Below, in pieces: positions 10,783 to 27,491 of a DNA stretch of 64,000 nucleotides (the first letter of the stretch is position 1; each line of letters begins with the position of its first letter). This DNA comes from Bacilli bacterium (GTDB lineage Bacteria; Bacillota_I; Bacilli_A; ML615J-28; CAG-698), in the NCBI GenBank assembly GCA_028702495.1, contig JAQVOS010000001.1, forward strand, positions 10,383 through 74,382, read 5' to 3'. A program made the position numbers and the translations under genes. The notes beneath the pieces are model-generated. The model worked only from the letters and a program-made list of their open reading frames with translations, did not search any database and was not told the origin of the DNA.

Positions 10783-10784
10783 TC

Positions 10785-12146: not shown

Positions 12147-14326
12147 AAAACTTCTTCCATTTTTTTCATTAAGAAAGTCGCAACATGGGCTCCTTTGGTT
12201 CCACGACCAAAACCAGCGTCGACTCCTTGCTTAATGGCAAGGTCATGAGTCACTTGGGTTCCACCCACAACGAAAATCAAACTTTTACGAACCCCTCGTT
12301 CAATGGCATACTCATGTAGTTTCTTCATATTCAAGTAGTGAACATCATTATGCGAAATAATGGTTGACATGAGAATGGCTTGAGATTTGGTTTCAATGGC
12401 AGCATCAATGAATTTTTGAATGGGAACAGATGTTCCAAGATATTCTACTTCAATTCCATATTTTTCGATACCACCATGTTTGATATCGATGATTTCTCTT
12501 AAGCCAACAGAATGCTCATCTTCTCCTGCGGTACCAGCAACAATCTTACAATGGTGTGTTTTAAAAAAACTTGTTAACTCTTCATCACTTGCAACATAGG
12601 GTTCTTCACGAAGCGTGAGGGTTGATGTATCTATACTAAAACTCACACGTCCTTTGATTTGAATCCGCGTTCCTTCGGATGGATGAAGGATTTCTTTATG
12701 AATAATTTCAACATCAAGCAAGTTCATTTTCTTTCCAATTTCAAGACTTGCTGCTTCTGCTAGTCTTAAACTGGTTGGAAGTGTGATATCAACGACCACA
12801 ATTCCATCGCCACACCACTGGACTTCTGGTATAATCTCGGAAGTGTTGCGATAGGGAGCCACTTCTTCAAGCCGATGATGAACATTATCCTCATCGAGTT
12901 CATCGATGAATATAATCTTATTGGGGTCTTCAAAAGTAGAACCCCCAATTAAATCCGAAGGATTCTTGACGCCATATAGTTCATAATGATTGACCCCAAA
13001 ATGAGCGGTAACAGGGGCTAAATAATCTGGATCACGTTTATAAATGGTATTTGCACCCACGCCGCTCTGTTCACGTCTTACGATGCCATCCCCATTTCTT
13101 TCAGGATAAAATCCTGAATCCACGAAGAACCCTGCTTCAACAGCCGCAAAGTATCCACCCGCTTCAAGAAGTTCTTCTAAAAAGAGAACCGCTCTTTCTT
13201 TTAATTCGCGAACACGAATCTTCATGATGCCTTCATGACGAACTTCAACCAACTCCTTTAATCCATCAAGACCTGCAAATGCTTGTTTTGCGGTATCACA
13301 TGCTTCAATATTGTACATATGCCATGGAACATTTCGTCCCTCATCAGGCGTTATCGTCGATTGAATATCTGCAGATGTTAGGGTAGAAATAAGAAGATTC
13401 ATGACATGGGTCACGGTTGCTTCACGAGTTGAAGACTCCATGTATTTTGTATTCATTTGAGCACGAATTTTAAATGCATCAAAAAACTCTCTTAATGCCA
13501 CCGCATAAGGTAAGTTAATTCGTAAATCAGGTGCAGGAGGTGCAATCGGTGGCACTGAAGACAGGGCTATTAAATCAGATTTCATGCCAACTTTTAATGA
13601 GAATGCGCAATTTATCGCATGCTGAACGAGAAGTTCAGGCATGACTTTCCATGCAATCTTGGCGGTAGCATTCGCATTATGGGCTCCATCAATCTGAAGC
13701 ATATTTGCCCACGCCATAATGTGTTTTGACTCTGCAGCATCAACAAATGAACGAACCATATTAATATTTCGATATAAGACATTATATTGAGGGTCCTGGT
13801 GAGCTCCATTAACGCCTTCTTCAGCAAACATGACAGCAATCTCAGGACCTGCAACACCCGATACATAGGAGTGATAATTGATCGGACGACCCACTTCATC
13901 TTCAATCAAATCGAGTGCTTTTCTCTGCGCTCGGACTTGTTTTCTTGTAATGGGAATACCTCCAACTCCTTGCGGTGTTCCTTCAATGAGTCCGTCAAAA
14001 TGAGATTGGCCTGCGGTACGAATGACCATCATATGATCGGCTCCATGCCACGCTGCCATCCTCATGCGTCGAATATCATCTTCGAAACGTCCTGAAGCAA
14101 TTTCGGTTGTAATGGTTTGAATGGGCTGAGGATCAATGGACCCTACATATTTGGCTGCAGGAAGAGGGATACTTTCCTTTAAATTTTTTGAAGTGTTGTA
14201 ATAAATATAATCATTTAATTTTTGATGTTTGACCGCTTCACGCCATACCCACCCTCTTCTTCGGGGGCGATAGTTCTCAAGATTGGCGAGAATCTTTTCA
14301 ATATTAATGGGGGTATCTTTATTCAT
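12143..14326 (-). CDS. oraE: D-ornithine 4,5-aminomutase subunit E (PLP- and adenosylcobalamin-binding)
   Basis: 727 aa from ATG at 14326 (GGAGGT RBS); C-terminal Rossmann-type B12-binding domain (…LIFVVGGTQVTHD…); upstream small oraS. Confidence 0.75.
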   Translation of the reverse strand: MNKDTPINIEKILANLENYRPRRRGWVWREAVKHQKLNDYIYYNTSKNLKESIPLPAAKYVGSIDPQPIQTITTEIASGRFEDDIRRMRMAAWHGADHMMVIRTAGQSHFDGLIEGTPQGVGGIPITRKQVRAQRKALDLIEDEVGRPINYHSYVSGVAGPEIAVMFAEEGVNGAHQDPQYNVLYRNINMVRSFVDAAESKHIMAWANMLQIDGAHNANATAKIAWKVMPELLVQHAINCAFSLKVGMKSDLIALSSVPPIAPPAPDLRINLPYAVALREFFDAFKIRAQMNTKYMESSTREATVTHVMNLLISTLTSADIQSTITPDEGRNVPWHMYNIEACDTAKQAFAGLDGLKELVEVRHEGIMKIRVRELKERAVLFLEELLEAGGYFAAVEAGFFVDSGFYPERNGDGIVRREQSGVGANTIYKRDPDYLAPVTAHFGVNHYELYGVKNPSDLIGGSTFEDPNKIIFIDELDEDNVHHRLEEVAPYRNTSEIIPEVQWCGDGIVVVDITLPTSLRLAEAASLEIGKKMNLLDVEIIHKEILHPSEGTRIQIKGRVSFSIDTSTLTLREEPYVASDEELTSFFKTHHCKIVAGTAGEDEHSVGLREIIDIKHGGIEKYGIEVEYLGTSVPIQKFIDAAIETKSQAILMSTIISHNDVHYLNMKKLHEYAIERGVRKSLIFVVGGTQVTHDLAIKQGVDAGFGRGTKGAHVATFLMKKMEEVL

Positions 14327-14693
14327 GATGACCTCCAAAACTTTTGATAACTTTATCCCAACCTTCTCCATTGATAAGAGCAAGCCCCGCTTCGCGAATC
14401 GGTAGGGAGGCTAGTTGATGATATCGAAAAACAACATGACCGGCTCCCTTTCCCATCAGTTCATGAGCCATCACTTTTTCAACGAGGGCTTTGGCCTCAA
14501 GGGAGGAGAATCCCATTCGTAGTAAAACACTGCGTTCGAGAGAAGGACTGGTATGTGTTTTTGCAAGATCAACTAAGGGTTCTACTGCTTGATTGGCTAA
14601 GCACCAAAAAGTGGCCTTTAATTCTTCATCGGATAAAGAGGCCAGATGTTTACGTCTTGCCTCAAAATCATCGCTTCTAGCTATTATTTTCAT
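14319..14693 (-). CDS. oraS: D-ornithine 4,5-aminomutase subunit S
   Basis: 124-aa protein; ATG at 14693 overlaps ortB stop (ATGA); size/position as OraS. Confidence 0.65.
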   Translation of the reverse strand: MKIIARSDDFEARRKHLASLSDEELKATFWCLANQAVEPLVDLAKTHTSPSLERSVLLRMGFSSLEAKALVEKVMAHELMGKGAGHVVFRYHQLASLPIREAGLALINGEGWDKVIKSFGGHHE

Positions 14694-16099
14694 ACCTTCC
14701 ACCTCAATTCTTTTTCTTGTAATAGCGAGAAGAGTTCTACTTCGCTTACTTTTAATTCTTCTTGTAAATACACTAAATCATCGCTTGTTAAAACAATCTC
14801 TTTTGTCACATTCGCTCCTAAATATGAGAGTCGTACACGATGTAAATCTACATCTTGAACATGAATAAGACTTGGATGTTCTGGAAGAATGATAGACTGT
14901 CCTGGAACTTCTGTTCTAGGATTTCCAAATTCAAGTTTAATTCCTTGTTTTCTAGCGAATGATAACTGGGCTTGATGATGTTTTCCTGCACCCGTATATT
15001 CGGTTTCTTGAACGACGATTACTTGATCTTGACGCAGTTCTTGAGCCAAAGAGAAAGCACAAGCGAGTGAGACATTCCCTGCAGGACCTCGTTCAATCCC
15101 TTCTAAAAGGGCCAAGGTTTCTGTCATAAAGAACACTTCTCCTTGAGTCATCGTAACATAACGATCAATATAACGTAGGGGACGTGCAGCAGAACGTGGC
15201 ACATCACTTCGATCAGGTTGCATCATAAAAGGAAGACCAAAACCCGTGTGGCCTGTTGTAAAGGATTTTCGATTAAAATCATAGTCGCTTGCCATATGTA
15301 AGCCAACAAGATTGACACTAGCACCCACAATCTCGACAGGGTCTGTCGTTGCTCGTTTGATTCCACGTGCGGTTCCGGTTAGGTTTCCCCCTCCAGCATT
15401 GGTACATACAACCATATCGGGTGAACGCCCGATTTGCTTCATACAATCTTCGATAACTTCTATTCCTAAAGTTTCAATTCCTAGGATTCCATAGGGGGTG
15501 TATAAAGAAGCATTAAAATAACCAGTCTCTTCTAATAATTGTAAGAATACATAAAAAAGTTCGGGACCAACCGATAGCTGAACGACCTCAGCTCCATACG
15601 CTTCACATGCTCGTGCTTTTTCTATAATTTCTGGTTGACCAATGCCGCGAGAATCATAGCACTCCTGAACAATGATGCAGGGAAGATTTAGTTTAGCAGC
15701 TTGCGAAGCCACTGCTGCTCCATAGTTTCCACTTGTAGCAGCAATCACACCAGGATAACCAAGCCGTTTTGCATGGTAACAGGAGATGGCAGCACGTCTG
15801 GCTTTAAAACTTCCCGAGTCATTGAGGGCTTCATCTTTGATAAAGATTCTAGCACCTTTCCCAGGTTGACTACAACGTCTTGCTAAAGCGGTGATATTTT
15901 TTAGTTCTTTTAGGGGAGTTTTTCCAACTCCATGCTCTAATTGAATTTTTTTCACCATGTTAATCGGATATCCATGGTCCTTCATTAAGGATTCGTATTG
16001 AAATCCAATTTGAGATCTTTCATACTGAGAATAATCAATCCCAATAGCTTTTTTCATAATCTCGTTCTTACGAGCCATGACACGATCGTATTTATTCAT
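14690..16099 (-). CDS. ortB: 2-amino-4-ketopentanoate thiolase beta subunit (PLP-dependent, Trp-synthase-beta fold)
   Basis: 469 aa with PLP-fold motifs; follows ortA. Confidence 0.7.
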   Translation of the reverse strand: MNKYDRVMARKNEIMKKAIGIDYSQYERSQIGFQYESLMKDHGYPINMVKKIQLEHGVGKTPLKELKNITALARRCSQPGKGARIFIKDEALNDSGSFKARRAAISCYHAKRLGYPGVIAATSGNYGAAVASQAAKLNLPCIIVQECYDSRGIGQPEIIEKARACEAYGAEVVQLSVGPELFYVFLQLLEETGYFNASLYTPYGILGIETLGIEVIEDCMKQIGRSPDMVVCTNAGGGNLTGTARGIKRATTDPVEIVGASVNLVGLHMASDYDFNRKSFTTGHTGFGLPFMMQPDRSDVPRSAARPLRYIDRYVTMTQGEVFFMTETLALLEGIERGPAGNVSLACAFSLAQELRQDQVIVVQETEYTGAGKHHQAQLSFARKQGIKLEFGNPRTEVPGQSIILPEHPSLIHVQDVDLHRVRLSYLGANVTKEIVLTSDDLVYLQEELKVSEVELFSLLQEKELRWKV

Positions 16100-16379
16100 G
16101 AGAAGACCTCACAAGCGTTTCAATGCGTAAAAGTTCAGGAACAAATTCACCATAACTATGACGATATGTTGGATTGACTTCAATCAATTTACCTTCTTCT
16201 AAACGATGCGTTTTGGTTTTGATATGAACCCAATCAAACATCTCTGCATCTTCTAAAAGGGTTCCTTTGACCCACATTTTAAGAGGAGTCTTTTTCGTAT
16301 CTTCGGGTATATGAGAACTTCGCTCTTGAGGCTCTAAAACAATGCGCTCAATGAGAACCCAACTTCCTTTTTGAATCAT
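16092..16379 (-). CDS. ortA: 2-amino-4-ketopentanoate thiolase alpha subunit
   Basis: 95 aa from ATG at 16379 (MIQKGSW…), ATGA overlap with ord stop, GAGGAAAAG RBS. Confidence 0.6.
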   Translation of the reverse strand: MIQKGSWVLIERIVLEPQERSSHIPEDTKKTPLKMWVKGTLLEDAEMFDWVHIKTKTHRLEEGKLIEVNPTYRHSYGEFVPELLRIETLVRSSHE

Positions 16380-17419
16380 ATCTTTTCCTCCACAAGAGCT
16401 CGTACATCCCCACAAATGGCGCGAGGAACGGGAAGATCTAGCATCGTTTTTAAGCCTGGAGTCGCATTCAGGAGGAGAGGAATCATATTAACACAAATGG
16501 CAATCGTTCCCATGCCACCTTCCACTTCAGGACTAATCGACATTTTAATATTGGGACTCCCTGCTAGGGTGATATAGTCTCCGGTTGTGATACCTCCAAG
16601 ATGAGGTTCAATTTGTTGGGGGTGATGTAAATGAAAGAATGTTTTACCATCTTTCACCCCTTCAGCTTCCATATCAATTCCGCATACATGTCCTGCTTTC
16701 GCAAACCCATGTGGGGAGGTTCGATCCACATCGGTGATAATGGGTTTCATGGTTTGACTAACGACTACATCCTTTAATCCAAGACCCTCACTCATCATCG
16801 AAATCGACTCCCAAAAACCAATGTGACCAGAAATCTGTGTGCATTTGGCATCATATTCTTCGATTGACAAGCCTACTCCTTGTTCTTCCATCACCGCCTT
16901 GCCAAAAGGGGATAAAGAGTTCACACGGGATACCTCAATATTTTTCACATCACTCATGACTCCTGTTAAAAACAACACGAGTAAATCCATCATCATTCCC
17001 GGATTGACCCCTGTTCCGAGAATCCGAACATGATAAGCTTTTGCAAGTTCATCCATTTTTTTAGATAGCTCAGGGTTTGCTGCATAAGGATAAGCCATTT
17101 GTTCAGCCGTTGATATGACATTAATTCCATGTTTTACAAGCCACTCAATTTTAGGGTAAGCTTTCTCAGTAAAAGAATCTGTTGCAAGTAAACAAATATC
17201 AGCCCTTTCCCAATGGGGAATATCAGTCACTGAAGATGCAATCCGTGCATCCTCAGCATAATCACTTATTAATTCCTTGATGGATTTTCCAATGAGAGCA
17301 GGATTCATATCCACTGCTCCAAGAATTTGAAAACCCTGCTTATGGGCAATCATCTGGGCCATTCCTTTACCCATAGCTCCAAAGCCCCAAATCATCACTT
17401 TAATCTTTTCTTGTCTCAT
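16376..17419 (-). CDS. ord: 2,4-diaminopentanoate dehydrogenase (DapB-like NAD(P) oxidoreductase)
   Basis: N-terminal Rossmann motif IWGFGAMGKG; 347 aa; context between arcC and ortA. Confidence 0.7.
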   Translation of the reverse strand: MRQEKIKVMIWGFGAMGKGMAQMIAHKQGFQILGAVDMNPALIGKSIKELISDYAEDARIASSVTDIPHWERADICLLATDSFTEKAYPKIEWLVKHGINVISTAEQMAYPYAANPELSKKMDELAKAYHVRILGTGVNPGMMMDLLVLFLTGVMSDVKNIEVSRVNSLSPFGKAVMEEQGVGLSIEEYDAKCTQISGHIGFWESISMMSEGLGLKDVVVSQTMKPIITDVDRTSPHGFAKAGHVCGIDMEAEGVKDGKTFFHLHHPQQIEPHLGGITTGDYITLAGSPNIKMSISPEVEGGMGTIAICVNMIPLLLNATPGLKTMLDLPVPRAICGDVRALVEEKI

Positions 17420-18348
17420 ATATCCTCCTCAGTAATTATCGTTCCACATCTTCCTTTTAAAGCCTCGTTAGCTTCTTCAAGGGAAGTAATAATAGCCATG
17501 CGATGGGAATTTCCACGAACAAATTCAACGCTTGCTTCTACCTTAGGAAGCATACTTCCCTTCGCAAAATGTCCTTCTTCGATATAGCGAAGCGCCTCAC
17601 TCACTGATAAATGGCGAAGCGCACATTCCTTAGGTGTTCTATAATGAAGGACCACATAAGGAACGGTTGTTAAAATGAGTAAAATGTCAGCATCAATTCT
17701 GCGTGCTAAAAAACTGCTCACATAATCCTTATCAATGACAGCATCGACCCCAACCCATTCATTGCTTTTCAAGACAACAGGAATGCCTCCACCCCCACAA
17801 CAAATAAGGGTGACCTTTTCTTTTAACAATGCTGTAATCACGTCTTCTTCAAGAATCCCAATCGGAAGCGGTGAAGGGACAACTCTTCGATATCCGCGCT
17901 TTGCATCTTCAATAAATGTATAACCTCGCGCGCGTTCTAAATTACGCGCTTCTTCTTCGGTATAAAAACCACCAATGGGCTTTGTTGGAGTGAGAAAATG
18001 AGGGTCGTTTTCATCAACTTCCACTTGAGTTAAGAGGGTTGCCACGGAATGCTCTTCTTTTAAACAATTTTTTAAAGCTTTTTGTAAATGATACCCAATA
18101 TACCCCTGACTCATTGCTCCACATTCAGGAAAAGGCATCGTGAATAGTTTATCATTCACACGACTAGACTCGGAAAAGGCAAGATGAATGGCACCCACTT
18201 GGGGACCATTTCCATGCGTGATCACGAGTTCATGACCCACAAGAATCATTTCTTTTAAAATCGCAACTGTTTTATAAACATTCTTACTTTGCTCCTCTGG
18301 GGTTTGCCCTAAAGCATTGCCCCCTAGGGCAACCACAATGCGACTCAT
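17416..18348 (-). CDS. arcC: Carbamate kinase
   Basis: N-terminal [10 protein letters not shown] motif of amino-acid-kinase family; 310 aa. Confidence 0.85.
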
Positions 18349-19346
18349 ACCTCACCACCAAGAGATGCTACCATCACCGCTTTAATTGTATGTAGACGAT
18401 TCTCAGCTTCATCAAATACCACAGATTGGCTAGATTCAAAGACTTCATCAGTCACTTCCAAACCAACGAGTCCATATTCTTCGAAAACTTCTTTGCCCAT
18501 CGTTGTTTCAAGATTGTGAAAACTAGGTAAACAATGTAAGAAAATCGCATTTTTATCAGCAAGTTGCATTACATCTTTCCTCACTTGATAGGGTTTAAGG
18601 AGAGCGATTCGCTCGCCCCATACGCTATGATCTTCGCCCATTGAAACCCAGACATCCGTGGTAATAACATCTACTCCTTTTACCCCTATAGCGATATCTT
18701 CTGTAAAGAGAAGATGAGCTCCCGTTTCATGTGCTATTTCTCTTGCCTTCTCGATGAGAGTTTCTTCTGGCCATAACACGCGAGGTGCAACAAGACGAAA
18801 ATCAAGTCCCATTTTAGCAGCTCCAATTAAGAGTGAGTTTCCCATGTTATAACGAGCATCGCCCAAGTAAGCCATTTTAATTCCTTTTAAGGCTCCTTTA
18901 TGTTCTAGGATGGTGAGGAAATCAGCGAGTATTTGGGTGGGATGATAACGATCAGTTAATCCATTCCATACCGGAACCCCTGAATACTTAGCCAATATTT
19001 CTACAGATTCTTGATGATATCCTCGAAATTCAATACCATCAAACATCCGACCTAAAACACGAGCAGTATCTTTGATGCTTTCTTTCTTTCCCATTTGAGA
19101 CCCACTAGGGCCCAGATAAGTCGCATGCATTCCTTGATCATACGCTGCCACTTCGAAAGCACAACGTGTTCTCGTCGAATCTTTCTCAAAAATAAGGGCA
19201 ATATTTTTCCCCACACAACGCTTCTTTTCAATCCCTTGTTGTTTTTCGAATTTCAGTTGTTGGGCTAGGTTTAGTAGATATAATATCTCTTCTGGTGCAT
19301 AATCAAGTAGTGTTAGTAAACTCCTGTTTTTTAGATTCATAGTCAT
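18345..19346 (-). CDS. arcB: Ornithine carbamoyltransferase (catabolic)
   Basis: STRTR carbamoyl-phosphate motif and HCLP ornithine-binding motif; 333 aa. Confidence 0.9.
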
Positions 19347-19355
19347 TTCCTCAAT

Positions 19356-20585
19356 CTATTCAATGTCATCACGGATAAAGGGCATACTCATACAACGAGG
19401 TCCACCTCTTCCGCGTGATAATTCACTCGATGGAATGGGATAAATCTTGATTCCATGTTCTTCAAGTAGATGGTTGGTGATGTGATTTCGCTCATACACA
19501 ATCACTTCTCCTGGAGCAATCGCCATCGTGTTAACTCCATCATTCCATTGCTCACGATCTGATGCAATGGCATCGCCACCCCCACAAGGGATAAGCGTCA
19601 CAGGTCGCTTTAAGTAATGCGATAAGATCGCGTCTAGCTTTTTCTCAATTGGTTTGACAAATAGTTTCAAATCCCGTTTTGGATCTTTCATTAATTCGAA
19701 AACGCGCATCGACTGATTGATATCACTATGGATGGTGAACTTGTCATAATCAACCTGGGTAAAAACTGTATCTAGGTGCATAAAAGCTCTTGTTTTAGGA
19801 ATGTCAAAGGCGAGTACTTTTTCAAAAGTTGTATTGTTGAAATAGAGAAGTTGTTTGGCAAGACGTTCAATTGAAGCAGGGTGTGTTCTTTGGGAGACTC
19901 CCACAGCTACAATTTTATCGTTTAGCACCATGATGTCTCCTCCTTCAATCGAAGTCGAAGCATCTCTTTTATAATAAATCGAAGGCATTGGATTTCCATA
20001 ATGAGGATGATACCTGAAAATATATTCTCCAAAAATACTCTCACGACTACGACTAGAGGCATACATTTTCCCGAGCATAACTCCTTTACCAATAATGGTA
20101 AAGGGATCTCTCGTAAAATATAGATTAGGCATAGGATCTGTGACAAATGGATAATCACGAATATAATCGGATAACGTTCTTTTAGTGAAATTGGGGATAT
20201 CCACTTTTCTAATTCCAGCCATCATTTTCGCAATCATATCACGGGTTGGAAGTGCCTCTAAATAAGTGCGCAAAATGGAACTCAATGTTTCACTGGTCAC
20301 ATTCGATTCTTTAATAAATTGATTAATAAAGGCTTCTTTCACATTCAGCCCTGAATCAAGGGTCTCTTCAATTAAATCCACCAAATATAGAACTTCAATT
20401 CCTTTGCTTTGGTAAAAGCAAGATAAGGCTTGATGTTCTTCTTTGGCTCGTTCTAACCATGGGATGTCATCGAACAATAATTGTTCTAACATCTTGGGCG
20501 TTAAATGTTCTAATTCTTGTCCTGGTTCATGCAATAGGACACATTTTAAGCGACCAATCTCCGAATTAATTCGTAAAGAATCCAT
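19356..20585 (-). CDS. arcA: Arginine deiminase
   Basis: 409 aa; C-terminal GGGPRCMSMP catalytic-Cys region typical of ADI. Confidence 0.85.
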   Translation of the reverse strand: MDSLRINSEIGRLKCVLLHEPGQELEHLTPKMLEQLLFDDIPWLERAKEEHQALSCFYQSKGIEVLYLVDLIEETLDSGLNVKEAFINQFIKESNVTSETLSSILRTYLEALPTRDMIAKMMAGIRKVDIPNFTKRTLSDYIRDYPFVTDPMPNLYFTRDPFTIIGKGVMLGKMYASSRSRESIFGEYIFRYHPHYGNPMPSIYYKRDASTSIEGGDIMVLNDKIVAVGVSQRTHPASIERLAKQLLYFNNTTFEKVLAFDIPKTRAFMHLDTVFTQVDYDKFTIHSDINQSMRVFELMKDPKRDLKLFVKPIEKKLDAILSHYLKRPVTLIPCGGGDAIASDREQWNDGVNTMAIAPGEVIVYERNHITNHLLEEHGIKIYPIPSSELSRGRGGPRCMSMPFIRDDIE

Positions 20586-20658: not shown

Positions 20659-20696
20659 AAAATAAAAGGGATAGAAAGTAAAATTACTTTCTATCC
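20659..20696 (-). terminator. Rho-independent terminator after crtO-like gene (GGATAGAAAGTA/TACTTTCTATCC stem, U-run on minus strand)
   Basis: 12-bp perfect stem, 4-nt loop, followed on the minus strand by TTTTATTTT. Confidence 0.65.
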
Positions 20697-21200
20697 GACT
20701 TGTTTGTATTGACGATTGGGGTGTTTTTCAAGCAAGTGTTTGATGCGTGGACGATTATAGCGCTGCACAATAATGCAGGGCATATTGACGATAAGACTAT
20801 ACACGAGCATCATCCAACCAACATAGAATGGCGTGAATAAGAAGAAGATCCAAAATAAGAGAATGGGTCCAATATGGGTTGCTTCCCCACGACAAGACTC
20901 AACAAGAAATTTTTCCAGATTTTCATCACGATAATCTTCTAAATGCTTCTTTTGATATCCTTTTTTTCGCCAAACAGCACCTCCATCTGGCAGAAGATGC
21001 TTCCACGATTTCACTTTAAAAAGAGTTTGATACAACTCACCCTCTTTTTCAAATGCATGACTTCGATAAACCCAATGATCGGGGTGAAACAAGCGTTTCG
21101 GTAGATTCAACATGAGTAGGGCACACCCTGATTGAATAATAGGCCATACAATAAAACATAGAAGAATGGTCAGTTCATCACTTAAAAAGAGAACTCTCAT
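20691..21200 (-). CDS. crtO: Glycosyl-4,4'-diaponeurosporenoate acyltransferase-like membrane protein
   Basis: 169 aa; C-terminal …IIVQRYNRPRI… matches the conserved IIVQRYNRPRL block of S. aureus CrtO; ATGA overlap with upstream GT2. Confidence 0.65.
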   Translation of the reverse strand: MRVLFLSDELTILLCFIVWPIIQSGCALLMLNLPKRLFHPDHWVYRSHAFEKEGELYQTLFKVKSWKHLLPDGGAVWRKKGYQKKHLEDYRDENLEKFLVESCRGEATHIGPILLFWIFFLFTPFYVGWMMLVYSLIVNMPCIIVQRYNRPRIKHLLEKHPNRQYKQVG

Positions 21201-22306
21201 GATGGATTCCTCGAACGAATGGTTCTATCTTTCCAAATGACAGGTCGTTTAAATATTTTCTTCACCAGAGATAAGGTGAATAAAACAACAAAAAAGGTAA
21301 ATATGATGGGATATAATACAAGACCCCCCCATTGATTGTGTCCTATTTGATGCGATATTTTTCGTAATATTGGTATCCACAAACGAGTGCCAATTCCGAA
21401 AACAAGAGCCCACCACTCAAGTCCTAAAAGACTATAACGAACAATTTGAATAGGTCCTGATAGGATGGATGCAATGAAGAAGAATACCCCGAGCGAAAGC
21501 ATGAAAGGTGTTTTCATCGCACCAGCAGCCATATTCTTCGTCCAGCCTTGAATTAGCGTCTTAATTCCCAAAGGATACATACGAAAATTTAGCCCAACAT
21601 CTCCGACATAAGTTTGAAAAGAAAGCCCTTTGCGTCGCAACACTTGGCCTAAACTCATGTCTTCAACAATGCTATCTTTAACGCTTTCGTGTCCGCCAAT
21701 CGCAAAATAATCCTTTTTTGATATGAGAATGATGGGGCCATAACAACCAATTGGTTTTTGTTTAGGAATTGCAGTTTGATTGGCAGCAATTTGAATAAGA
21801 TTAAACGGAAGTGATAATTGTTCATATGCGCGTTGTGTTGCATGATAGGGTTGTACTGAAATCGTACATTTCTCTTTTTGATAGAGAGAAGCAAGTCTCA
21901 TAATTGCTTCATGATCAAGACGAACATCACTATCCAAAAACAAATAGACTTCTCCAGTTGCTATCTGACTTCCTTGCCATAAAGCCCAGGACTTACCAAT
22001 CCAACCTTTCGCTTTTTCTTTAATTTCAAGGATTCGAATTGGGTATTCTTTCGCAATAGCGACCGTTTTATCAGTTGAGTCATCATCCACAACAATCACC
22101 TCATGAGGAATGAGAGTTTGCTGCATGAGATCTTGAAGCAATAGTCCAATGGTATGTTCTTCATTCCGACAAGGAATGATGACTGACACTCGTAAAGATG
22201 GATCGTTTAGAGTAACATGAGGAATTTTGGGAATTTTATAAAATAAAATTCCTGCAGCCACGAGTCCGACAAAAACAATAACAAGACGAAGGATGAGAAG
22301 AAACAT
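21197..22306 (-). CDS. crtQ: Family-2 glycosyltransferase (CrtQ-like, 4,4'-diaponeurosporenoate glycosyltransferase)
   Basis: GT2 motifs VSVIIPCRNEE…VVDDDSTD; N-terminal TM helix plus C-terminal TM bundle. Confidence 0.65.
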   Translation of the reverse strand: MFLLILRLVIVFVGLVAAGILFYKIPKIPHVTLNDPSLRVSVIIPCRNEEHTIGLLLQDLMQQTLIPHEVIVVDDDSTDKTVAIAKEYPIRILEIKEKAKGWIGKSWALWQGSQIATGEVYLFLDSDVRLDHEAIMRLASLYQKEKCTISVQPYHATQRAYEQLSLPFNLIQIAANQTAIPKQKPIGCYGPIILISKKDYFAIGGHESVKDSIVEDMSLGQVLRRKGLSFQTYVGDVGLNFRMYPLGIKTLIQGWTKNMAAGAMKTPFMLSLGVFFFIASILSGPIQIVRYSLLGLEWWALVFGIGTRLWIPILRKISHQIGHNQWGGLVLYPIIFTFFVVLFTLSLVKKIFKRPVIWKDRTIRSRNPS

Positions 22307-22310
22307 ATCA

Positions 22311-23864
22311 TCACTTCCTTTTCTTGATAATCTTGTCAGCAGCTAATTTTCCTGTCAAAATCGAAACAGGCATTCCAGCAGGACTAAAAGTCCATTGACC
22401 GCATTGATAGATGTGGGGGATGGTTGTTCGAATGGATTTTCTAATTTGGGGAAAACGATGTTCTGAAGGGATGACCTCATTCGCAAATGACCACCCTGTG
22501 ATGGCTCCATCTGCATTAGAAGTTAATGATTCAATCGTAAGCGGTGTCGAACAACTTTCAAAAACAATCAAGTTTGATAAATCTGGAAGAACACTTTTTT
22601 CTAGAACATCTTTCACTTTTTTAAGAATAAACTTTTTAAATTCTTCCATTTGACGATGATCACTAAAACGTGCTGTCAAATCATAATCAAATAGTGTGCT
22701 AACAATCAAGCTCGATTGCCCATCGGGAGCAAGAGATGGATCCCTTAGTGAGGGACAAGAAATTTCATAAGTTGTATAATCCAAATATTGACTCACCCAT
22801 GTAGATAGATTAGGTGCATCTTTCCAAGTAGAAAGGTTGTGTAGTCCTCGCGAATCAGGAGTATAAAAGCTGTGGATTCCCACATACTTTAATAGCTTTT
22901 CACTATTCATGCGAATGCCAAAATAACAGGTTAGAATCGAATCACTACCATGGCTTTTATTCATTAAAGCACTTAACTTTCTTCCTTTTCTTGAAGGAAG
23001 ATGAGCGAGATTGCGATAAAGAGTCTTAATATTCGCAGCCCACACCAAATCATGATATCCAATGACTTCTTTTGCCTCGGTTGTAATGGTTTTTTGTTTT
23101 TGATCGACTGCTATCACACGTGTTTTACAAGCGATCTCGCCACCATATTTTAGGATCACTTCTTCTAATTTTTTTGTAAGCGTTCCTGTTCCTCCTAAAG
23201 GATAGCGATAATCCGTATAAAACCCAAAATAACTCAGAGCAAAGAAAGCAGGCGTGTTTTTAAAAAAGTGCTGAGTAATCATATCGATTAAAGATTGGTT
23301 CTGAGTAAATTGTTTAAGATAAGTTACGACATCTCCGTGAAAGGCTTTCACCTTTTTCATACTACGATTATATTTGATAAGCCATGGAAGAAGGGTGTGA
23401 AGCAGATACTTAGAATCTAGCTTTCCTTCTAAAAACAAGGGGTTTTCGATTCCATATAAAACATCCATATACATCATGACTTGTCGTATTTTTTCAGTAA
23501 TAATGTCAATGGCATTTTTTTCATCAGGAAAATGCGATTTCAAAAGTTTGGCATAGTCATTCAATGATTCTTTATTGTCAATGGAAATCATATCATTTTT
23601 GATTCCAATCTGAACAGGATTCGAAATAAATGTCATATCAATTCCTAAGGACTTAATCATTGGTAATAGAATTCCTGAATCTTCAAACGCACGAATCCCC
23701 TGATCAAAAGAAAATCCTTCGCGTTCAAATGTTCCGACAAGCCCACCTACTTTTTCTTGTTGTTCACATAAGAGAACACGTACACCCGCCTTGGCAAGAT
23801 AGGCAGTGGCAGTTAATCCAGCAATGCCACCCCCTACAACAATCACATCATAGGAACGCATCAT
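22311..23864 (-). CDS. FAD-dependent desaturase/oxidase of the phytoene-desaturase (CrtI/CrtN/CrtP) family
   Basis: N-terminal dinucleotide fold VIVVGGGIAGLTA; about 517 aa as for CrtN/CrtP. Confidence 0.7.
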   Translation of the reverse strand: MMRSYDVIVVGGGIAGLTATAYLAKAGVRVLLCEQQEKVGGLVGTFEREGFSFDQGIRAFEDSGILLPMIKSLGIDMTFISNPVQIGIKNDMISIDNKESLNDYAKLLKSHFPDEKNAIDIITEKIRQVMMYMDVLYGIENPLFLEGKLDSKYLLHTLLPWLIKYNRSMKKVKAFHGDVVTYLKQFTQNQSLIDMITQHFFKNTPAFFALSYFGFYTDYRYPLGGTGTLTKKLEEVILKYGGEIACKTRVIAVDQKQKTITTEAKEVIGYHDLVWAANIKTLYRNLAHLPSRKGRKLSALMNKSHGSDSILTCYFGIRMNSEKLLKYVGIHSFYTPDSRGLHNLSTWKDAPNLSTWVSQYLDYTTYEISCPSLRDPSLAPDGQSSLIVSTLFDYDLTARFSDHRQMEEFKKFILKKVKDVLEKSVLPDLSNLIVFESCSTPLTIESLTSNADGAITGWSFANEVIPSEHRFPQIRKSIRTTIPHIYQCGQWTFSPAGMPVSILTGKLAADKIIKKRK

Positions 23865-25708
23865 TATGACTCCTCCTTTTTGATATATTTCATAATCTTC
23901 TCTATTTGAATTCCAACTCCGCCTTCACGACACCAAATACAACGTTCTTCGAACGTATGTATTGCATCAAAAGAAACCTTGCTTTTAGCAAGAGCTTTTT
24001 TAGCTCCCTGCCAATTACCGAGGACGACTCGACGCATGATGCCACGAGCATCGAGGTCATGCACTCTAACACATGTTGGATGTTCACATAGGCGACAACG
24101 ATTGGCTTCTTCACGAATCGTGCGTTCTTCTTTTGAAGATTCACGGAATAACTCGCTTTTTTTAAAAGGGGGAGCAACAAGATGTACTTGTTCTTTGATA
24201 TTGGAATCAAACACAAAAGGCACCATTTTATATTTTCTCAAAATCACATTGGCTGCAGTTAATCCTGAGGTAGTAACCGTAGGCGTCCCTGTCCCCATGA
24301 CAGTGGATTCTCCAGAACAAAAAACATTACTCCATTTTGTTCTAATATGTTGACGATGGAACATATGTTGTCCTAACATTTGTTTTGGTCCCGCCACCGC
24401 TCCCTTATTTTTAAGGCAATAACGTTCAATGGTTCTTGGGGTTGCAAGTTCTGTATAGCGTACTTCCTTTTTGAAGCCTGGAAAACGACGTTCAATCACA
24501 TCAAGAAGTCGTTTAACTTCTTTATCTTTTTGAGTGCGATAAGTTTCTTTATTATGTGACCACTCTTCAAATGAAGGTCCAACAGCGATGACAATGTGCT
24601 CATCCTCTTGACATAATGTTTTATCATCAATCGACATAATATACAAGGTAACTTCACTTTCATCGAGTTGTTTAGGATTTCCAACTACCATTTCAATGGC
24701 GGCAGTATCATCAGGTATAACACTTTTAGAAACAGCGGTATATAAGACGACACTTGGGTACGTTGGCACTTGCTTTCTAAAAGTTTCACGAATTTTTAGG
24801 CTTGTTAAAGAAGGGTCTATTAATTTATCATAGAAATTCCAAACAGTTCCTGTATAAACGATATCGCGAGCAGACAAAGTGGTGCCATCATCTAAAAGAA
24901 CACCTGTGGCTTCGTTTTTCTCAAATAAAATCTTTTCGACTTCATGAGAATAGATCATATCTCCCCCGTGTTCTTCAATGACTTTCTCGAGTTTTCCAGG
25001 TAGATAAAGGGTTGAGCCTGCAGGGTAGTAACTACCTCCTACATGATTATCAACAAACATGACTGCTGCTAAAACAGCAGGAGCTTCTTCCACAGTTGCA
25101 TAACAGTAAGTAGAGGTTAGTTTATCGAAAAAATTAAAAATCTCTGGATTTTTAAAATATTGCTTCAGTAAACTTTTGGCACTTTGATTGAGTAAACTTA
25201 AAAATTTAATATAGGAAAAGGGATGTTTTAACATGCTTTTTAAAGCCAGCCTCGGGTTCGTTTCCTCAGGACTTGTATAGGTGGGATTCTCAACCATAAC
25301 ATGGGTGTACATCCTCATCATATCGCGATAAAACCGATGAATGTTTCCCGCTTCATCGGGAAATACACCGGCTAGTTCATCTGCAAATTTTTCTACATCA
25401 GCCCAAAAACGAATTCTTTTGCCTTCATAATTGACAACATATAATAAATCATGTTTGATGATATCGATGGGTTCTTCTAACACGTTGAAGACAAAACGAT
25501 GAGCATTAAATCCGCGTTCACCAAATCCATACAACATCGTTGATCCTTGATCAAAGATTCGATTTCCCCTTTTAAAGATTCCACAAGATCCTCCAGGGTT
25601 ATAGTTGTTATCAATCACTCCAACTTTCAGTCCTCTTTTTGCTAATAAACTTCCGGCGGTCAATCCTGAAAGTCCGCCACCAATGATTAGTACATCATAA
25701 TTTATCAT
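23864..25708 (-). CDS. Phytoene-desaturase-family FAD oxidoreductase with C-terminal cysteine-rich (putative Fe-S, GltD/NfnB-N-terminal-like) extension
   Basis: N-terminal VLIIGGGLSGLTA FAD fold; about 500-aa desaturase core plus a roughly 110-aa tail containing CRLCEHPTC…GNWQGAKKAL…CIWC. Confidence 0.6.
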   Translation of the reverse strand: MINYDVLIIGGGLSGLTAGSLLAKRGLKVGVIDNNYNPGGSCGIFKRGNRIFDQGSTMLYGFGERGFNAHRFVFNVLEEPIDIIKHDLLYVVNYEGKRIRFWADVEKFADELAGVFPDEAGNIHRFYRDMMRMYTHVMVENPTYTSPEETNPRLALKSMLKHPFSYIKFLSLLNQSAKSLLKQYFKNPEIFNFFDKLTSTYCYATVEEAPAVLAAVMFVDNHVGGSYYPAGSTLYLPGKLEKVIEEHGGDMIYSHEVEKILFEKNEATGVLLDDGTTLSARDIVYTGTVWNFYDKLIDPSLTSLKIRETFRKQVPTYPSVVLYTAVSKSVIPDDTAAIEMVVGNPKQLDESEVTLYIMSIDDKTLCQEDEHIVIAVGPSFEEWSHNKETYRTQKDKEVKRLLDVIERRFPGFKKEVRYTELATPRTIERYCLKNKGAVAGPKQMLGQHMFHRQHIRTKWSNVFCSGESTVMGTGTPTVTTSGLTAANVILRKYKMVPFVFDSNIKEQVHLVAPPFKKSELFRESSKEERTIREEANRCRLCEHPTCVRVHDLDARGIMRRVVLGNWQGAKKALAKSKVSFDAIHTFEERCIWCREGGVGIQIEKIMKYIKKEES

Positions 25709-25881
25709 ATGTATATCCTTTGCCTTTAATGTCTCATTATAACATGGTTTTTAAAAGTTTTCTATCAAAATGCGTAGAAAACAACTCTTCATACTCATTT
25801 TAATCAGATAATAAAAAAGGCATATCATTTGCACTATTTTGTAAAGTAAGGCATAATAGAATCAATGATCGAGGTGATGAT

Positions 25882-26856
25882 GTGTTTCAATTACATATTG
25901 ATAAAAAGCCACCAACAACAGTTACTAAAGTAACAGTTTATGATCTCATCATTATTGGGGGTGGCCCTGCTGGTCTTAATGCAGCCCTTTATGCCAAGCG
26001 TAAAGGATTAAACGTCCTTCTTCTCGCAAAAGAAATTGGCGGACAACTTCATAACACAAGCATTGTTGATAACTATTTGGGATTTAAGGAAATAGAAGGA
26101 AAAGACTTGTCCAATACTTTTTTGCATCATCTCGAAACCTTATCTGTTCCAATAATGACTAATATAACTGTGAAGAATCTAGCATATCAAAAGGATATCT
26201 TTACCATTCAAGTTTCTGCAAGCCAATCCTATCAAGCTAGAACTGTTCTCCTTACAACGGGAGGTGCTCCAAGAAAGCTCAATATCCCTGGCGAAAAAGA
26301 GTATCAAAACAAAGGGGTCTCATATTGTACGACATGTGATGCTCCATTCTTCAAAGGAAAACATGTTATTGTTGCTGGGGGTGGAAATAGCGCTGCTGAA
26401 GCCATTATAGATCTTGCTGCTTGGGCTAGTAAAACAACACTTGTTCATCGAAGCGAATGGCGAGCCGATGATATCATTTTGCAAAAAGTAAAAACAATTC
26501 CTAATTTAACCATTCATCTACAAACACAAATCACAAGGATTTATGGAGATGACTTCATGAAAGGAATCAATGTTTTTGATAAAGTAACCGGTAAGGAAAG
26601 TTCCATTCTTGCTGATGGCATCTTCATCGAAATTGGGACCATTCCGAATAGTGATTTAGTAAAGGGTTTAGCAACCCTCAATGAAATTGGAGAAGTCATC
26701 GTTGACTCCAATCAAATGACGTCTTTCCCTGGATTATTTGCTGCAGGAGATGTCACAGCATCCCCTCATAAACAAATTGTTACCTCGATCGCCCAAGGAG
26801 CCATTGCTGCTTTAGGTGTGACACAATATTTAAATTTAAAGGAGAATAAAATATGA
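25882..26856 (+). CDS. Thioredoxin-reductase-like FAD/NAD(P) pyridine nucleotide-disulfide oxidoreductase
   Basis: GTG start with GAGGTGA RBS; IIIGGGPAGLNAA FAD motif, redox-active CTTC, second Rossmann VAGGGNSA. Confidence 0.75.
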   Translation: MFQLHIDKKPPTTVTKVTVYDLIIIGGGPAGLNAALYAKRKGLNVLLLAKEIGGQLHNTSIVDNYLGFKEIEGKDLSNTFLHHLETLSVPIMTNITVKNLAYQKDIFTIQVSASQSYQARTVLLTTGGAPRKLNIPGEKEYQNKGVSYCTTCDAPFFKGKHVIVAGGGNSAAEAIIDLAAWASKTTLVHRSEWRADDIILQKVKTIPNLTIHLQTQITRIYGDDFMKGINVFDKVTGKESSILADGIFIEIGTIPNSDLVKGLATLNEIGEVIVDSNQMTSFPGLFAAGDVTASPHKQIVTSIAQGAIAALGVTQYLNLKENKI

Positions 26857-27491
26857 ACCTATTACCAGAAGATATCCAACAACAAATTCAAGAATATTTA
26901 AACTTTATGAAAGATAAAGTAACCATCGTCCTTTTTACAAAGGAAGAACCTTGTGAAACTTGCGAAGAAACCACCGATCTTCTTCGTCAAATTGCATCCT
27001 TATCCACTCAACTCGAACTCGTAGAAAAGTCTTTTACGAAAGACACTGATGATGTTAAAAAATATCACATTGAGCGCGTTCCAAGTTTTGTGTTACTGGA
27101 TGCAAAAGGGGAATACCATGGAGTGAAATTTAGTGGAATTCCTGGAGGACATGAAATCAATTCCTTTTTAGGGGCCTTGATTGACATGTCTGGGATGGAT
27201 TATGGTTTTGATGACGAAACCATCAAACGTATTCAAGCAATTAAGACACCTACCAACATTAAAGTCTTTGTGACTTTATCGTGCCCTCATTGCCCTGGAG
27301 CTGTTCAAACCGCTCATCGTATGGCGATGCTAAATAAGAACATTGAAAGTGAAATGATTGAAGCCCAAACCTTCTATGATTTGGCCATGCAATATAAGGT
27401 TTCGGGTGTTCCTAAAATCGTTATTAATGAAACTCAAGAACTGGTTGGAAATCAACCTATTGAATCATTCCTTGAACAACTAGAAAAGTAA
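26853..27491 (+). CDS. Double-thioredoxin-fold protein disulfide oxidoreductase-like protein (AhpF-N-terminal/PDO-like; CETC and CPHC motifs)
   Basis: Two CxxC motifs in separate halves; ATGA overlap with upstream reductase. Confidence 0.55.
   Translation: MNLLPEDIQQQIQEYLNFMKDKVTIVLFTKEEPCETCEETTDLLRQIASLSTQLELVEKSFTKDTDDVKKYHIERVPSFVLLDAKGEYHGVKFSGIPGGHEINSFLGALIDMSGMDYGFDDETIKRIQAIKTPTNIKVFVTLSCPHCPGAVQTAHRMAMLNKNIESEMIEAQTFYDLAMQYKVSGVPKIVINETQELVGNQPIESFLEQLEK

Follow-up and report, generated by a model that had tools for sequence, protein, structure and literature searches.

The window analyzed here, a stretch of 64,000 nucleotides, carries a member of an operon family that is widespread among anaerobic bacteria and has spread laterally. 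Its first gene product, FAD614, is predicted to be a CrtISO-like flavoprotein fused to a domain of the GltD/NfnB/DPD type, in which four Cys residues would ligate a single Fe-S cluster. The likeliest function of this self-contained four-gene operon, with a probability of roughly 45%, is in our view the conversion of a polyene or isoprenoid lipid, independently of oxygen, into an acylated glycolipid. The first-pass annotation had read the cluster as a staphyloxanthin-like cassette lacking crtM; it is rather a member of this operon family, for which no linked synthase was seen in the loci searched.

Operon layout, host context and spread

The four open reading frames were confirmed on the minus strand at 20691-25708 (Table 1). 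They are predicted to form one operon, as judged from a promoter-like site, a terminator-like hairpin and coupled junctions. The promoter-like site is the top-scoring match in the region (10/12, a consensus match only), and AAAGGCAAAGGA precedes the ATG of the FAD614 gene at 25708. The stop codon of FAD614 overlaps the start of FAD517 (TAATG), and that of GT369 overlaps the start of CrtO169 (ATGA).

Table 1. Predicted features of the operon (positions in the window)
Feature	Position	Strand	Description
Promoter-like site	25736..25764	-	TAGAAA, 17-nt spacer, TATAAT, extended -10 TG; upstream of the FAD614 gene
FAD614 (614 aa)	23864..25708	-	CrtISO/CrtH-like flavoprotein (residues 1 to ~495) with C-terminal Fe-S domain
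Fe-S domain of FAD614	23867..24196	-	Residues ~505-614; invariant Cys538-x2-Cys541-x4-Cys546 and Cys590
FAD517 (517 aa)	22311..23864	-	Second CrtI-superfamily flavoprotein, own family
GT369 (369 aa)	21197..22306	-	CrtQ-type membrane glycosyltransferase, family 2
CrtO169 (169 aa)	20691..21200	-	PF18927 (CrtO-family) membrane acyltransferase
Terminator-like hairpin	20669..20696	-	12-bp stem followed by T-run; overlaps the crtO-like stop codon; consensus match only

Elsewhere in the window, profile scores exceeded the cutoffs (in brackets) for OraE (1315 bits [800]), OrtB (801 [550]), Ord (453 [400]) and ArcA (516 [489]), and an Nfn/GltD-type pair is also encoded. These genes bear out the anaerobic host context proposed initially. 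The oxygen paradox raised with it, an O2-requiring CrtP step set against anaerobic gene content, is real, and the Fe-S-bearing flavoprotein is a plausible way around it.

A relative was found in 289 species, and the best 80 of the 289 all belong to anaerobic lineages; for at least three carrier strains, the record bears no metagenome-assembled label. Cultured carriers include Peloplasma aerotolerans M4Ah, Eubacteriaceae bacterium ES3 and Ruminococcaceae bacterium HV4-5-B5C, and complete genomes of carriers include CP130741.1, OY771363.1, OY776214.1 and OY762290.1. The order FAD614-FAD517-GT2-CrtO occurs in 36 of these 80 loci, and FAD517-GT2-CrtO in a further 16. UvdE and DUF1722 genes lie inside the cluster in 22 of the 80 loci. 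This co-transcription of a UV-damage endonuclease with the operon in many relatives hints at a protective function under light or oxidative stress. DegV adjoins the module in 10/80 loci, a placement that fits fatty-acid chemistry and counts against the tailoring of a polyene or isoprenoid lipid.

The two flavoproteins and the Fe-S domain of FAD614

Profile searches placed both flavoproteins in the CrtI/amine-oxidase superfamily. The best curated family for FAD614 was carot_isom (TIGR02730), aligned over the full length with 254 bits (E 3e-75), below the equivalog cutoff of 586.9 bits; the CrtD model gave 157 bits. On crtI_fam (TIGR02734), FAD614 and FAD517 scored 121 and 104 bits and failed to reach the cutoff of 238.1 bits, whereas S. 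equorum CrtN (426 bits) and CrtP (328 bits), used as positive controls, passed it. Both proteins score highest on carotenoid-specific models, yet remain under every curated cutoff. The solved structures nearest to FAD614 are the carotenoid desaturases 4REP and 4DGK; the predicted full-length model of FAD614 is poor (pLDDT 60.6). Relatives of FAD614 (~614 aa, 63-67% identical) occur across Clostridia, Bacilli and Anaerolineae, with MDD4211801.1 as an exact match. Members of the FAD517 family (~523 aa, 50-58% identical) are all uncharacterized.

The two proteins had been described as CrtN/CrtP-family desaturases, an assignment that we reject. In addition to missing the TIGR02734 cutoff, FAD614 and FAD517 are only 22-23% identical to CrtN/CrtP (E 1e-13 to 1e-15; FAD614 against CrtN, E 5e-15; FAD517 against CrtP, 23%, E 3e-13) and are farther from these enzymes than CrtN and CrtP are from each other (E 1e-60). 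The identity between FAD517 and FAD614 themselves is 23% (E 2e-25). All 111 CrtI-superfamily reading frames in the related loci belong to the FAD614 or the FAD517 family, and none is CrtN/P-like.

The C-terminal Fe-S domain of the 614-residue protein had been overlooked in the first-pass annotation. The Fer4_20 profile matched this region over positions 12-106 of 113 with a borderline score of 22.8 bits (E 8e-5), just under the Pfam gathering cutoff of 25.8 bits. The match corresponds to the Fer4_20/GltD-NfnB-DPD fold, with the conserved Cys ligands in register. Dihydropyrimidine dehydrogenase (DPD) carries two clusters, one of them bound by C79, C82, C87 and C140; the FAD614 domain lacks the ligands for the second and keeps one four-Cys ligand set. 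Note that the Fe-S domain is N-terminal in GltD, NfnB and DPD, whereas FAD614 has it at the C-terminus, attached to a flavoprotein of the CrtI superfamily.

Tailoring enzymes, backbone synthase and substrate

GT369 scored 88 bits on GT2 and 36 bits on GT21, and aligned with authentic CrtQ over its full length (35% identity over 332 aa, E 4e-54), upholding its earlier description as a CrtQ-like GT2. It has DDD at residue 74, DSD at residue 125 and three hydrophobic helices. In the NCBIfam scan no curated CrtQ model matched GT369, and its weak matches followed the same pattern as those of authentic CrtQ. We conclude that GT369 is a CrtQ-type GT2.

CrtO169 scored 118 bits on PF18927 (gathering cutoff 27.3), compared to 97 bits for authentic CrtO, and is 36% identical to S. 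equorum CrtO (E 2e-27), so that its designation as a CrtO-like acyltransferase of 169 residues also stands. Its hydrophobic helices indicate a multi-pass membrane topology, and E101, E106, H109 and QRYNR (146-150) are conserved without exception in the family members compared from staphylococci, cyanobacteria, Vescimonas and anaerobes. The motif PCIIVQRYNRPR is common to CrtO169 and S. equorum CrtO (VPCIIVQRYNRPK); S. equorum, not S. aureus, was compared. The IIVQRYNRPR block had been cited as support for CrtO identity. It is indeed shared with the staphylococcal (S. equorum) protein, but it is a hallmark of PF18927 as a whole and is present, too, in a protein of Vescimonas whose partners are a diacylglycerol-type (MGDG-synthase-type) glycosyltransferase and DegV. 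Hence the block is no proof that the substrate is a carotenoid, membership in the family does not reveal the acceptor, and a PF18927 'CrtO' annotation alone should not be taken as a sign of carotenoids.

The Vescimonas pairing is also consistent with a non-isoprenoid substrate, for which no isoprenoid synthase would be required. Here the flavoproteins would isomerize or saturate unsaturated fatty acids, the GT2 would form a glucosyl ester and the PF18927 enzyme would add a second acyl chain, in the handling or detoxification of free fatty acids. CrtQ chemistry, the esterification of a carboxylate in the staphyloxanthin pathway, and the DegV fatty-acid-binding genes flanking the module in 10 of the 80 loci would fit this scheme. 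We nevertheless regard it as improbable: most loci are without DegV, in the window DegV is far from the operon, and both flavoproteins score best on carotenoid-specific models and structures. Moreover, the FAD-dependent fatty-acid isomerase of Cutibacterium acnes was absent among the listed fold matches and the best 60 of 78 sequence matches.

We searched for the enzymes of backbone synthesis using as probes a PDB-validated CrtM (checked on PDB 4E9U and S. equorum CrtM) and the CrtM and AldH of S. equorum. In agreement with the initial observation, phmmer and a scan of PROSITE patterns over all reading frames of the window detected neither CrtM nor AldH homologues (S. equorum AldH, no phmmer match at E <= 0.01). 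A crtM directly outside the window had been named as an observation that would overturn the first reading; no squalene/phytoene synthase (PF00494) was found in the window or ~1 and 3.5 kb past its edges, nor in 88 related loci totalling 1.26 Mb. This search covered ~68 kb of the source genome. Since the related copies searched are likewise without a linked synthase, the absence of crtM characterizes the operon family as a whole, and what points to a carotenoid substrate is homology only. We reject a staphyloxanthin operon that lost crtM, given that the flavoproteins are not CrtN/CrtP and none of the 88 loci has a linked synthase. Clostridia have been described as containing carotenoid amino oxidases while lacking CrtM, HpnD and Sqs, and these oxidases 'could have other functions' (PMC9907078).

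A genuine staphyloxanthin-like C30 pathway, as first proposed, would place crtM, and perhaps a canonical crtN, elsewhere in the genome, with FAD614 and FAD517 replacing CrtN and CrtP. GT369 and CrtO169 are true homologues of CrtQ and CrtO, the set of two amine-oxidase-type enzymes, a glycosyltransferase and an acyltransferase mirrors C30 operons (PMC9907078), and the genome stretch inspected is ~68 kb only. Furthermore, the obligate anaerobe Eubacterium limosum has a functional crtM-crtN (PMC11611032), and Eubacteriaceae bacterium ES3, of the same family, carries FAD517-GT2-CrtO. We consider this pathway unlikely, however, because the flavoproteins fail the family model that authentic CrtN and CrtP pass, canonical CrtN/P lies near none of the modules, and no synthase was detected in the window, its flanks or the sequence around the 88 related modules. 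A genome-wide survey likewise found no trans-IPPS HH enzyme in Clostridia (PMC9907078). In addition, the known route depends on O2 for its CrtP step and on an aldehyde dehydrogenase for its AldH step, and the window search gave no AldH.

That no genome seen has a linked synthase would also agree with the tailoring of scavenged lipids, such as plant or algal carotenoids, retinoids or isoprenoid alcohols (e.g. phytol). Digesters, sediments and guts are rich in such lipids. In this scheme, FAD614 would be a saturase or isomerase that resembles RetSat and is driven by ferredoxin, and the GT2 and acyltransferase would produce a membrane glycolipid. FAD614 falls on the CrtISO side of the superfamily, which also includes retinol saturase (RetSat); an Fe-S relay domain would suit a reductase with low-potential donors, and the carriers come from biomass-degrading anaerobic habitats, as judged from record titles. 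Against this, no transporter or binding protein is consistently linked to the module in the related loci, and the UvdE association points to stress protection, not nutrient handling, making scavenging a rather remote explanation.

For the likeliest function, oxygen-independent lipid tailoring by the operon itself, we envisage that the two soluble flavoproteins would perform redox or isomerization reactions on the double bonds of a hydrophobic polyene or isoprenoid lipid. The Fe-S cluster would relay electrons between the flavoprotein and a ferredoxin-type partner, in place of the O2 or quinone used by CrtI/CrtN/CrtP, the direction and the partner being guesses. The GT2 would next attach a hexose to the lipid, and the PF18927 enzyme would esterify the sugar with a fatty acid, resulting in a membrane-anchored acylated glycolipid of the staphyloxanthin type.

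More tentatively, and with distinct doubt, we propose that anaerobes of several phyla possess an undescribed oxygen-independent polyene-lipid pathway, in which a CrtISO-like flavoprotein is wired by its own [4Fe-4S] cluster to ferredoxin-type partners and an acylated glycolipid is formed under light or oxidative stress. As its backbone would come from no known head-to-head prenyl synthase, an unrecognized synthase or scavenged isoprenoids would have to supply it. If FAD614 couples polyene redox chemistry to ferredoxin-type carriers, this would be, to our knowledge, the first oxygen- and quinone-independent solution in the superfamily, and would bear on how carotenoid-type lipids could arise or be altered before oxygen was available, or in its absence. 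The role of carotenoid-type amino oxidases in Clostridia and other anaerobes lacking the backbone enzyme is a published open question (PMC9907078); the operon recasts it as a compact, testable four-gene unit with relatives in hundreds of species.

Comparison with known systems

As staphyloxanthin reference we used crtOPQMN and aldH of Staphylococcus, from S. equorum plasmid pC2014-2. Both systems contain a CrtQ-type GT2 (35% identity, full length), a PF18927 CrtO (36%) and two amine-oxidase-fold flavoproteins per operon, and the product class, an acylated glycosyl lipid, is presumed to be the same. In contrast to the reference, the window is without crtM and aldH, one of its flavoproteins, which are only 22-23% identical to CrtN/CrtP, bears an Fe-S domain, the genes are arranged in a different order, and the hosts are anaerobic.

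CrtISO/CrtH (TIGR02730; cyanobacteria, plants, green sulfur bacteria) is the best curated family for FAD614, although the score is far under the cutoff. CrtISO/CrtH and RetSat act on polyene double bonds with reduced FAD and consume no O2. We know of no CrtISO or RetSat with a C-terminal Fe-S domain as on FAD614, and, unlike these enzymes, FAD614 comes from non-phototrophic anaerobes, where its gene is accompanied by those of a GT2 and an acyltransferase.

Precedents for O2-free acylated carotenoid glycosides exist in strict anaerobes, namely the carotenoid glycoside esters made with CruC/CruD in green sulfur bacteria and the OH-diaponeurosporene glucoside esters of heliobacteria. These organisms are phototrophs with complete backbone pathways. 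The CruD acyltransferase is, as far as we know, not a PF18927 protein, and the window operon encodes no hydratase (CrtC or CruF).

Orphan 'CrtN-like' amino oxidases have been noted in Clostridia and Fusobacteria (PMC9907078) and in gut Bacteroides and C. perfringens (PMC11611032). Like FAD614 and FAD517, they are products of CrtI-superfamily genes in anaerobes without a head-to-head prenyl synthase; linkage of the FAD614 and FAD517 families to a CrtQ/CrtO pair is not reported in either paper. The thresholds applied to clostridial CrtN in the PNAS study are far stricter than the similarity of FAD614 and FAD517 to CrtN. The two families therefore seem to form an additional set, not described so far, beside these orphan oxidases.

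Organization of the operon and its surroundings

The flavoproteins FAD614 and FAD517, the GT2 protein GT369 and the CrtO-like protein CrtO169 are encoded in an operon of four core genes only. The ORFs run head to tail on the minus strand, with the same boundaries as the four-gene cluster described in the first-pass annotation. They are joined, in order, by TAATG, a 4-nt gap and ATGA, indicating translational coupling. The GC content of the operon is that of the flanking DNA, and an Rfam scan of the whole window found no RNA family. The proteins match NCBI 'Bacilli bacterium' MAG records (MDD4211798, MDD4211800 and MDD4211801), located on a contig of 89.8 kb.

The anaerobic gene context noted earlier was confirmed: OraE, OrtB, Ord and ArcA exceeded the curated cutoffs of their NCBIfam models, and the window also contains an Nfn/GltD-type pair. 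Directly downstream of the operon lies a complete-looking arginine-to-ornithine fermentation block, in which ArcA, OTC and carbamate kinase are followed by Ord, OrtB, OraS/OraE, a MutL-type reactivase and ornithine racemase (433 bits, just below the cutoff of 480). Note that OTC, carbamate kinase and OraS were identified by eye from translations only. A split AhpF-like pair, divergent from the operon, combines a thioredoxin-reductase-like protein with a protein disulfide oxidoreductase (PDO; 245 bits, cutoff 185); this pair did not recur as a neighbour in related loci. The window also encodes a 1092-aa secreted protein in which a type I dockerin (38.8 bits) accompanies a purple-acid-phosphatase/metallophosphatase domain; the dockerin is unexpected in a genome labelled Bacilli. 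With its listed TTG start at 48067, the NfnB/GltD-type ORF shares 143 nt with the NfnA-type gene that precedes it; the true start of the ORF is probably further downstream.

Features of the operon and its neighbours in the window
Feature	Position	Strand	Remarks
FAD614	23864-25708	minus	614 aa ORF
FAD517	22311-23864	minus	517 aa ORF
GT369	21197-22306	minus	369 aa ORF
CrtO169	20691-21200	minus	169 aa ORF
Promoter-like site, extended -10	25764-25736	minus	just upstream of first ATG; pattern match only
Hairpin, 12-bp stem and T-run	20696-20669	minus	covers last stop codon; pattern match only
Fermentation block	9724-20585	minus	
Split AhpF-like pair	25882-27491	plus	
Dockerin protein	38337-41615	minus	
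NfnB/GltD-type ORF	47376-49569 (together with the preceding NfnA-type gene)	plus	

The two flavoproteins and the Fe-S domain of FAD614

FAD614 and FAD517 had been assigned to the CrtN/CrtP desaturases, a reading that did not hold. Both fell below the TIGR02734 (crtI_fam) cutoff of 238 bits, with 121 and 104 bits, respectively, whereas authentic CrtN and CrtP from a Staphylococcus equorum plasmid passed it with 426 and 328 bits. By BLASTP, FAD614 is only 22% identical to CrtN (E 5e-15) and FAD517 23% to CrtP (E 3e-13); E values were 1e-60 for CrtN versus CrtP and 2e-25 for FAD517 versus FAD614. The top curated family for FAD614 was carotenoid isomerase (carot_isom), aligned over the full length with 254 bits (FAD517, 91; CrtN, 84; CrtP, 97), which places FAD614 on the CrtISO/CrtH side of the superfamily. 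The closest solved structures for both proteins are the carotenoid desaturases 4REP and 4DGK. The AlphaFold model of full-length FAD614 was of low confidence (pLDDT 60.6) and served only to confirm the general carotenoid-desaturase fold. Each protein belongs to a tight, wholly uncharacterised family, that of FAD614 being 63-67% identical, always ~614 aa and with a mean column identity of 80%, and that of FAD517 50-58% identical and ~523 aa. A search of a plasmid collection with both proteins returned nothing above 26% identity. Judged by these sequence comparisons, FAD614 and FAD517 appear to represent two novel CrtI-superfamily flavoprotein families.

FAD614 has an extra C-terminal domain (residues ~505-614) with four invariant cysteines, C538-x2-C541-x4-C546 and C590, conserved in each of 26 family members compared; several members have these four alone. 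The isolated domain scored 22.8 bits against Pfam Fer4_20, just below the cutoff of 25.8, with nearly the whole profile covered. Its alignment with the Fe-S domain at the N terminus of the window's NfnB/GltD-type protein was in register (hhalign E 1.5e-4), and that with residues 69-116 of DPD was weak (E 0.19). Modelled by itself, it reached a pLDDT of 81.7. In DPD, C79, C82, C87 and C140 are the ligands of one of two N-terminal [4Fe-4S] clusters, and this is the same pattern as that retained in FAD614. The domain is predicted to be of the GltD/NfnB/DPD Fe-S type. A single-sequence search of 1.84 billion representatives gave 44 matches, mostly fragments, and the full-length ones, such as P0369 (622 aa), carry the domain C-terminally. 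Among these representatives the domain was seen only in the FAD614 family or its fragments, with no other architecture evident. To our knowledge, no CrtI-superfamily enzyme characterised so far carries an Fe-S domain of this kind.

Tailoring enzymes and the search for a backbone synthase

The proposed CrtO-like and CrtQ-like identities were supported. CrtO169 matched Pfam PF18927 with 118 bits (cutoff 27.3). For comparison we used the authentic staphyloxanthin operon of the S. equorum plasmid (aldH ... crtN-crtM-crtQ-crtP-crtO-TspO): CrtO169 shares 36% identity with the CrtO of that operon (E 2e-27), and GT369 is 35% identical to its CrtQ across the full CrtQ length (E 4e-54). The operon encodes CrtQ- and CrtO-type tailoring enzymes. 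The motif PCIIVQRYNRP, which includes most of the block originally cited for CrtO, does occur in the authentic CrtO, but it is invariant across the entire PF18927 family. Vescimonas fastidiosa, a strict anaerobe of the gut, encodes a PF18927 protein that matches the family just as well (107 bits); its gene is flanked by one for a DegV fatty-acid-binding protein and one for an MGDG-synthase-type (GT28) glycosyltransferase (pMM35_01; locus L090, 8061-10487). This operon suggests a route to an acylated glycosyl-diacylglycerol, and it shows that a 'CrtO' annotation is not specific to carotenoids. On a plasmid of the cyanobacterium Picosynechococcus sp. PCC 7003 (L091, 5886-7471), a bare GT2-PF18927 pair adjoins IS200/IS605 genes, a setting which suggests mobility of the two tailoring genes as one module. 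The GT28 partner and the bare pair together indicate that PF18927 marks a glycolipid-sugar acyltransferase, not carotenoids as such. A fatty-acid-derived aglycone is a live alternative for the operon studied here.

No backbone synthase was found linked to the operon in the window, just beyond its edges or in the related loci. The probe was S. aureus CrtM, corrected against PDB 4E9U (4 mismatches in 287 residues), and its reach included phytoene synthase, YisP and HpnC. When all frames of the window and of 88 loci (1.26 Mb in total) were searched with it by phmmer, no homologue was detected. Marginal matches adjoining crtO in two related loci (L062 and L067) proved to be signalling proteins of the PAS/HD-GYP type rather than synthases. 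S. equorum CrtM, AldH and TspO as queries also gave no matches, and crtM and aldH are absent from the window, as first reported. The window edges were extended through Logan contigs, with a positive control scoring E 8e-82. No crtM immediately outside the window was found: ~1 kb before its start (HTH regulator) and 3.5 kb past its end (mfd, pth, folD and FTHFS) contained no synthase. Of the CrtI-superfamily ORFs in related loci, 111 of 111 fell within either the FAD517 or the FAD614 family. An unlinked crtM elsewhere in the genome is a live explanation, as is the scavenging of isoprenoids.

Distribution among anaerobes and proposed function

A genome scan with a CrtO alignment detected relatives in 289 species. 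The best 80, for which architectures were counted, were all from anaerobic lineages (Clostridia, Oscillospiraceae, Christensenellaceae, Anaerolineae, Dehalococcoidales, Acholeplasmataceae, Thermotogaceae and Cryosericum). Three carriers have no MAG label: Peloplasma aerotolerans M4Ah, Ruminococcaceae bacterium HV4-5-B5C and Eubacteriaceae bacterium ES3. FAD614-FAD517-GT2-CrtO was present in the same order and strand at 36 of the 80 species loci, FAD517-GT2-CrtO at 16 and GT2-CrtO only at 17; the operon is broadly conserved in anaerobes. In the reverse direction, FAD614-FAD517 was found without the GT2/CrtO pair, and FAD614 also occurred alone. Since the flavoprotein pair and the GT2/CrtO pair each occur separately, the system consists of two modules. 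Short FAD614/FAD517 fragments beside intact GT2-CrtO (L054 8375-8806, L060 7343-7823, L074 9449-9868 and L080 2291-2536) resemble copies of the flavoprotein module undergoing decay.

Recurrent neighbours at the 80 loci were a 268-aa multi-pass membrane protein without Pfam match (25 loci), the UV-damage endonuclease UvdE fused to DUF1722 (22), DegV (10), a Rieske/VanA_C oxygenase-type protein (8), TetR (7) and PAS/HD-GYP (7). The UvdE-DUF1722 fusion and the membrane protein lie directly upstream of the module on the same strand (e.g. L017 3330-5427, L088 3375-5449 and L070 5112-7289). Because TspO adjoins crtO in staphylococci, the membrane protein was compared with TspO, and a relationship was rejected (hhalign probability 0.3%). 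The Rieske/VanA_C gene is located just upstream of FAD614, often with a TetR regulator (L006 8995-9966, L018, L024, L034, L035, L043, L055 and L085). That anaerobes carry an enzyme of this O2-dependent type hints at a use in micro-oxic conditions.

Clostridia and Fusobacteria contain carotenoid amino oxidases in the absence of CrtM/HpnD/Sqs, and Santana-Molina et al. (2022, PMC9907078), who reported this, concluded that the oxidases 'could have other functions'. In Eubacterium limosum a canonical crtM-crtN is functional, yet no pigment is formed anaerobically, and orphan crtN-like genes occur in further gut anaerobes (Matsumoto et al. 2024, PMC11611032). Our literature search found no description of this operon or of an Fe-S-fused CrtISO. 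The yellow 'carotenoid-like' pigment of cellulolytic clostridia ('yellow affinity substance') was considered as product and discarded, as it is an unrelated aryl-polyene polyketide (PMC11839114).

We propose that the flavoproteins would act on a polyene or isoprenoid lipid by redox or isomerisation chemistry that does not depend on O2, with the Fe-S cluster exchanging electrons with a ferredoxin-type partner. The GT2 would then place a hexose on the lipid, which the PF18927 enzyme would acylate. The linkage to UvdE suggests a role in stress protection. The operon makes the published open question of anaerobe carotenoid oxidases without a synthase directly testable, and the Fe-S-fused CrtISO-like enzyme is a second reason for interest. 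In conclusion, the first-pass observation is confirmed and its interpretation supported in part: the operon is better described as a member of an uncharacterised, widely distributed anaerobe operon family than as a staphyloxanthin cassette lacking crtM.
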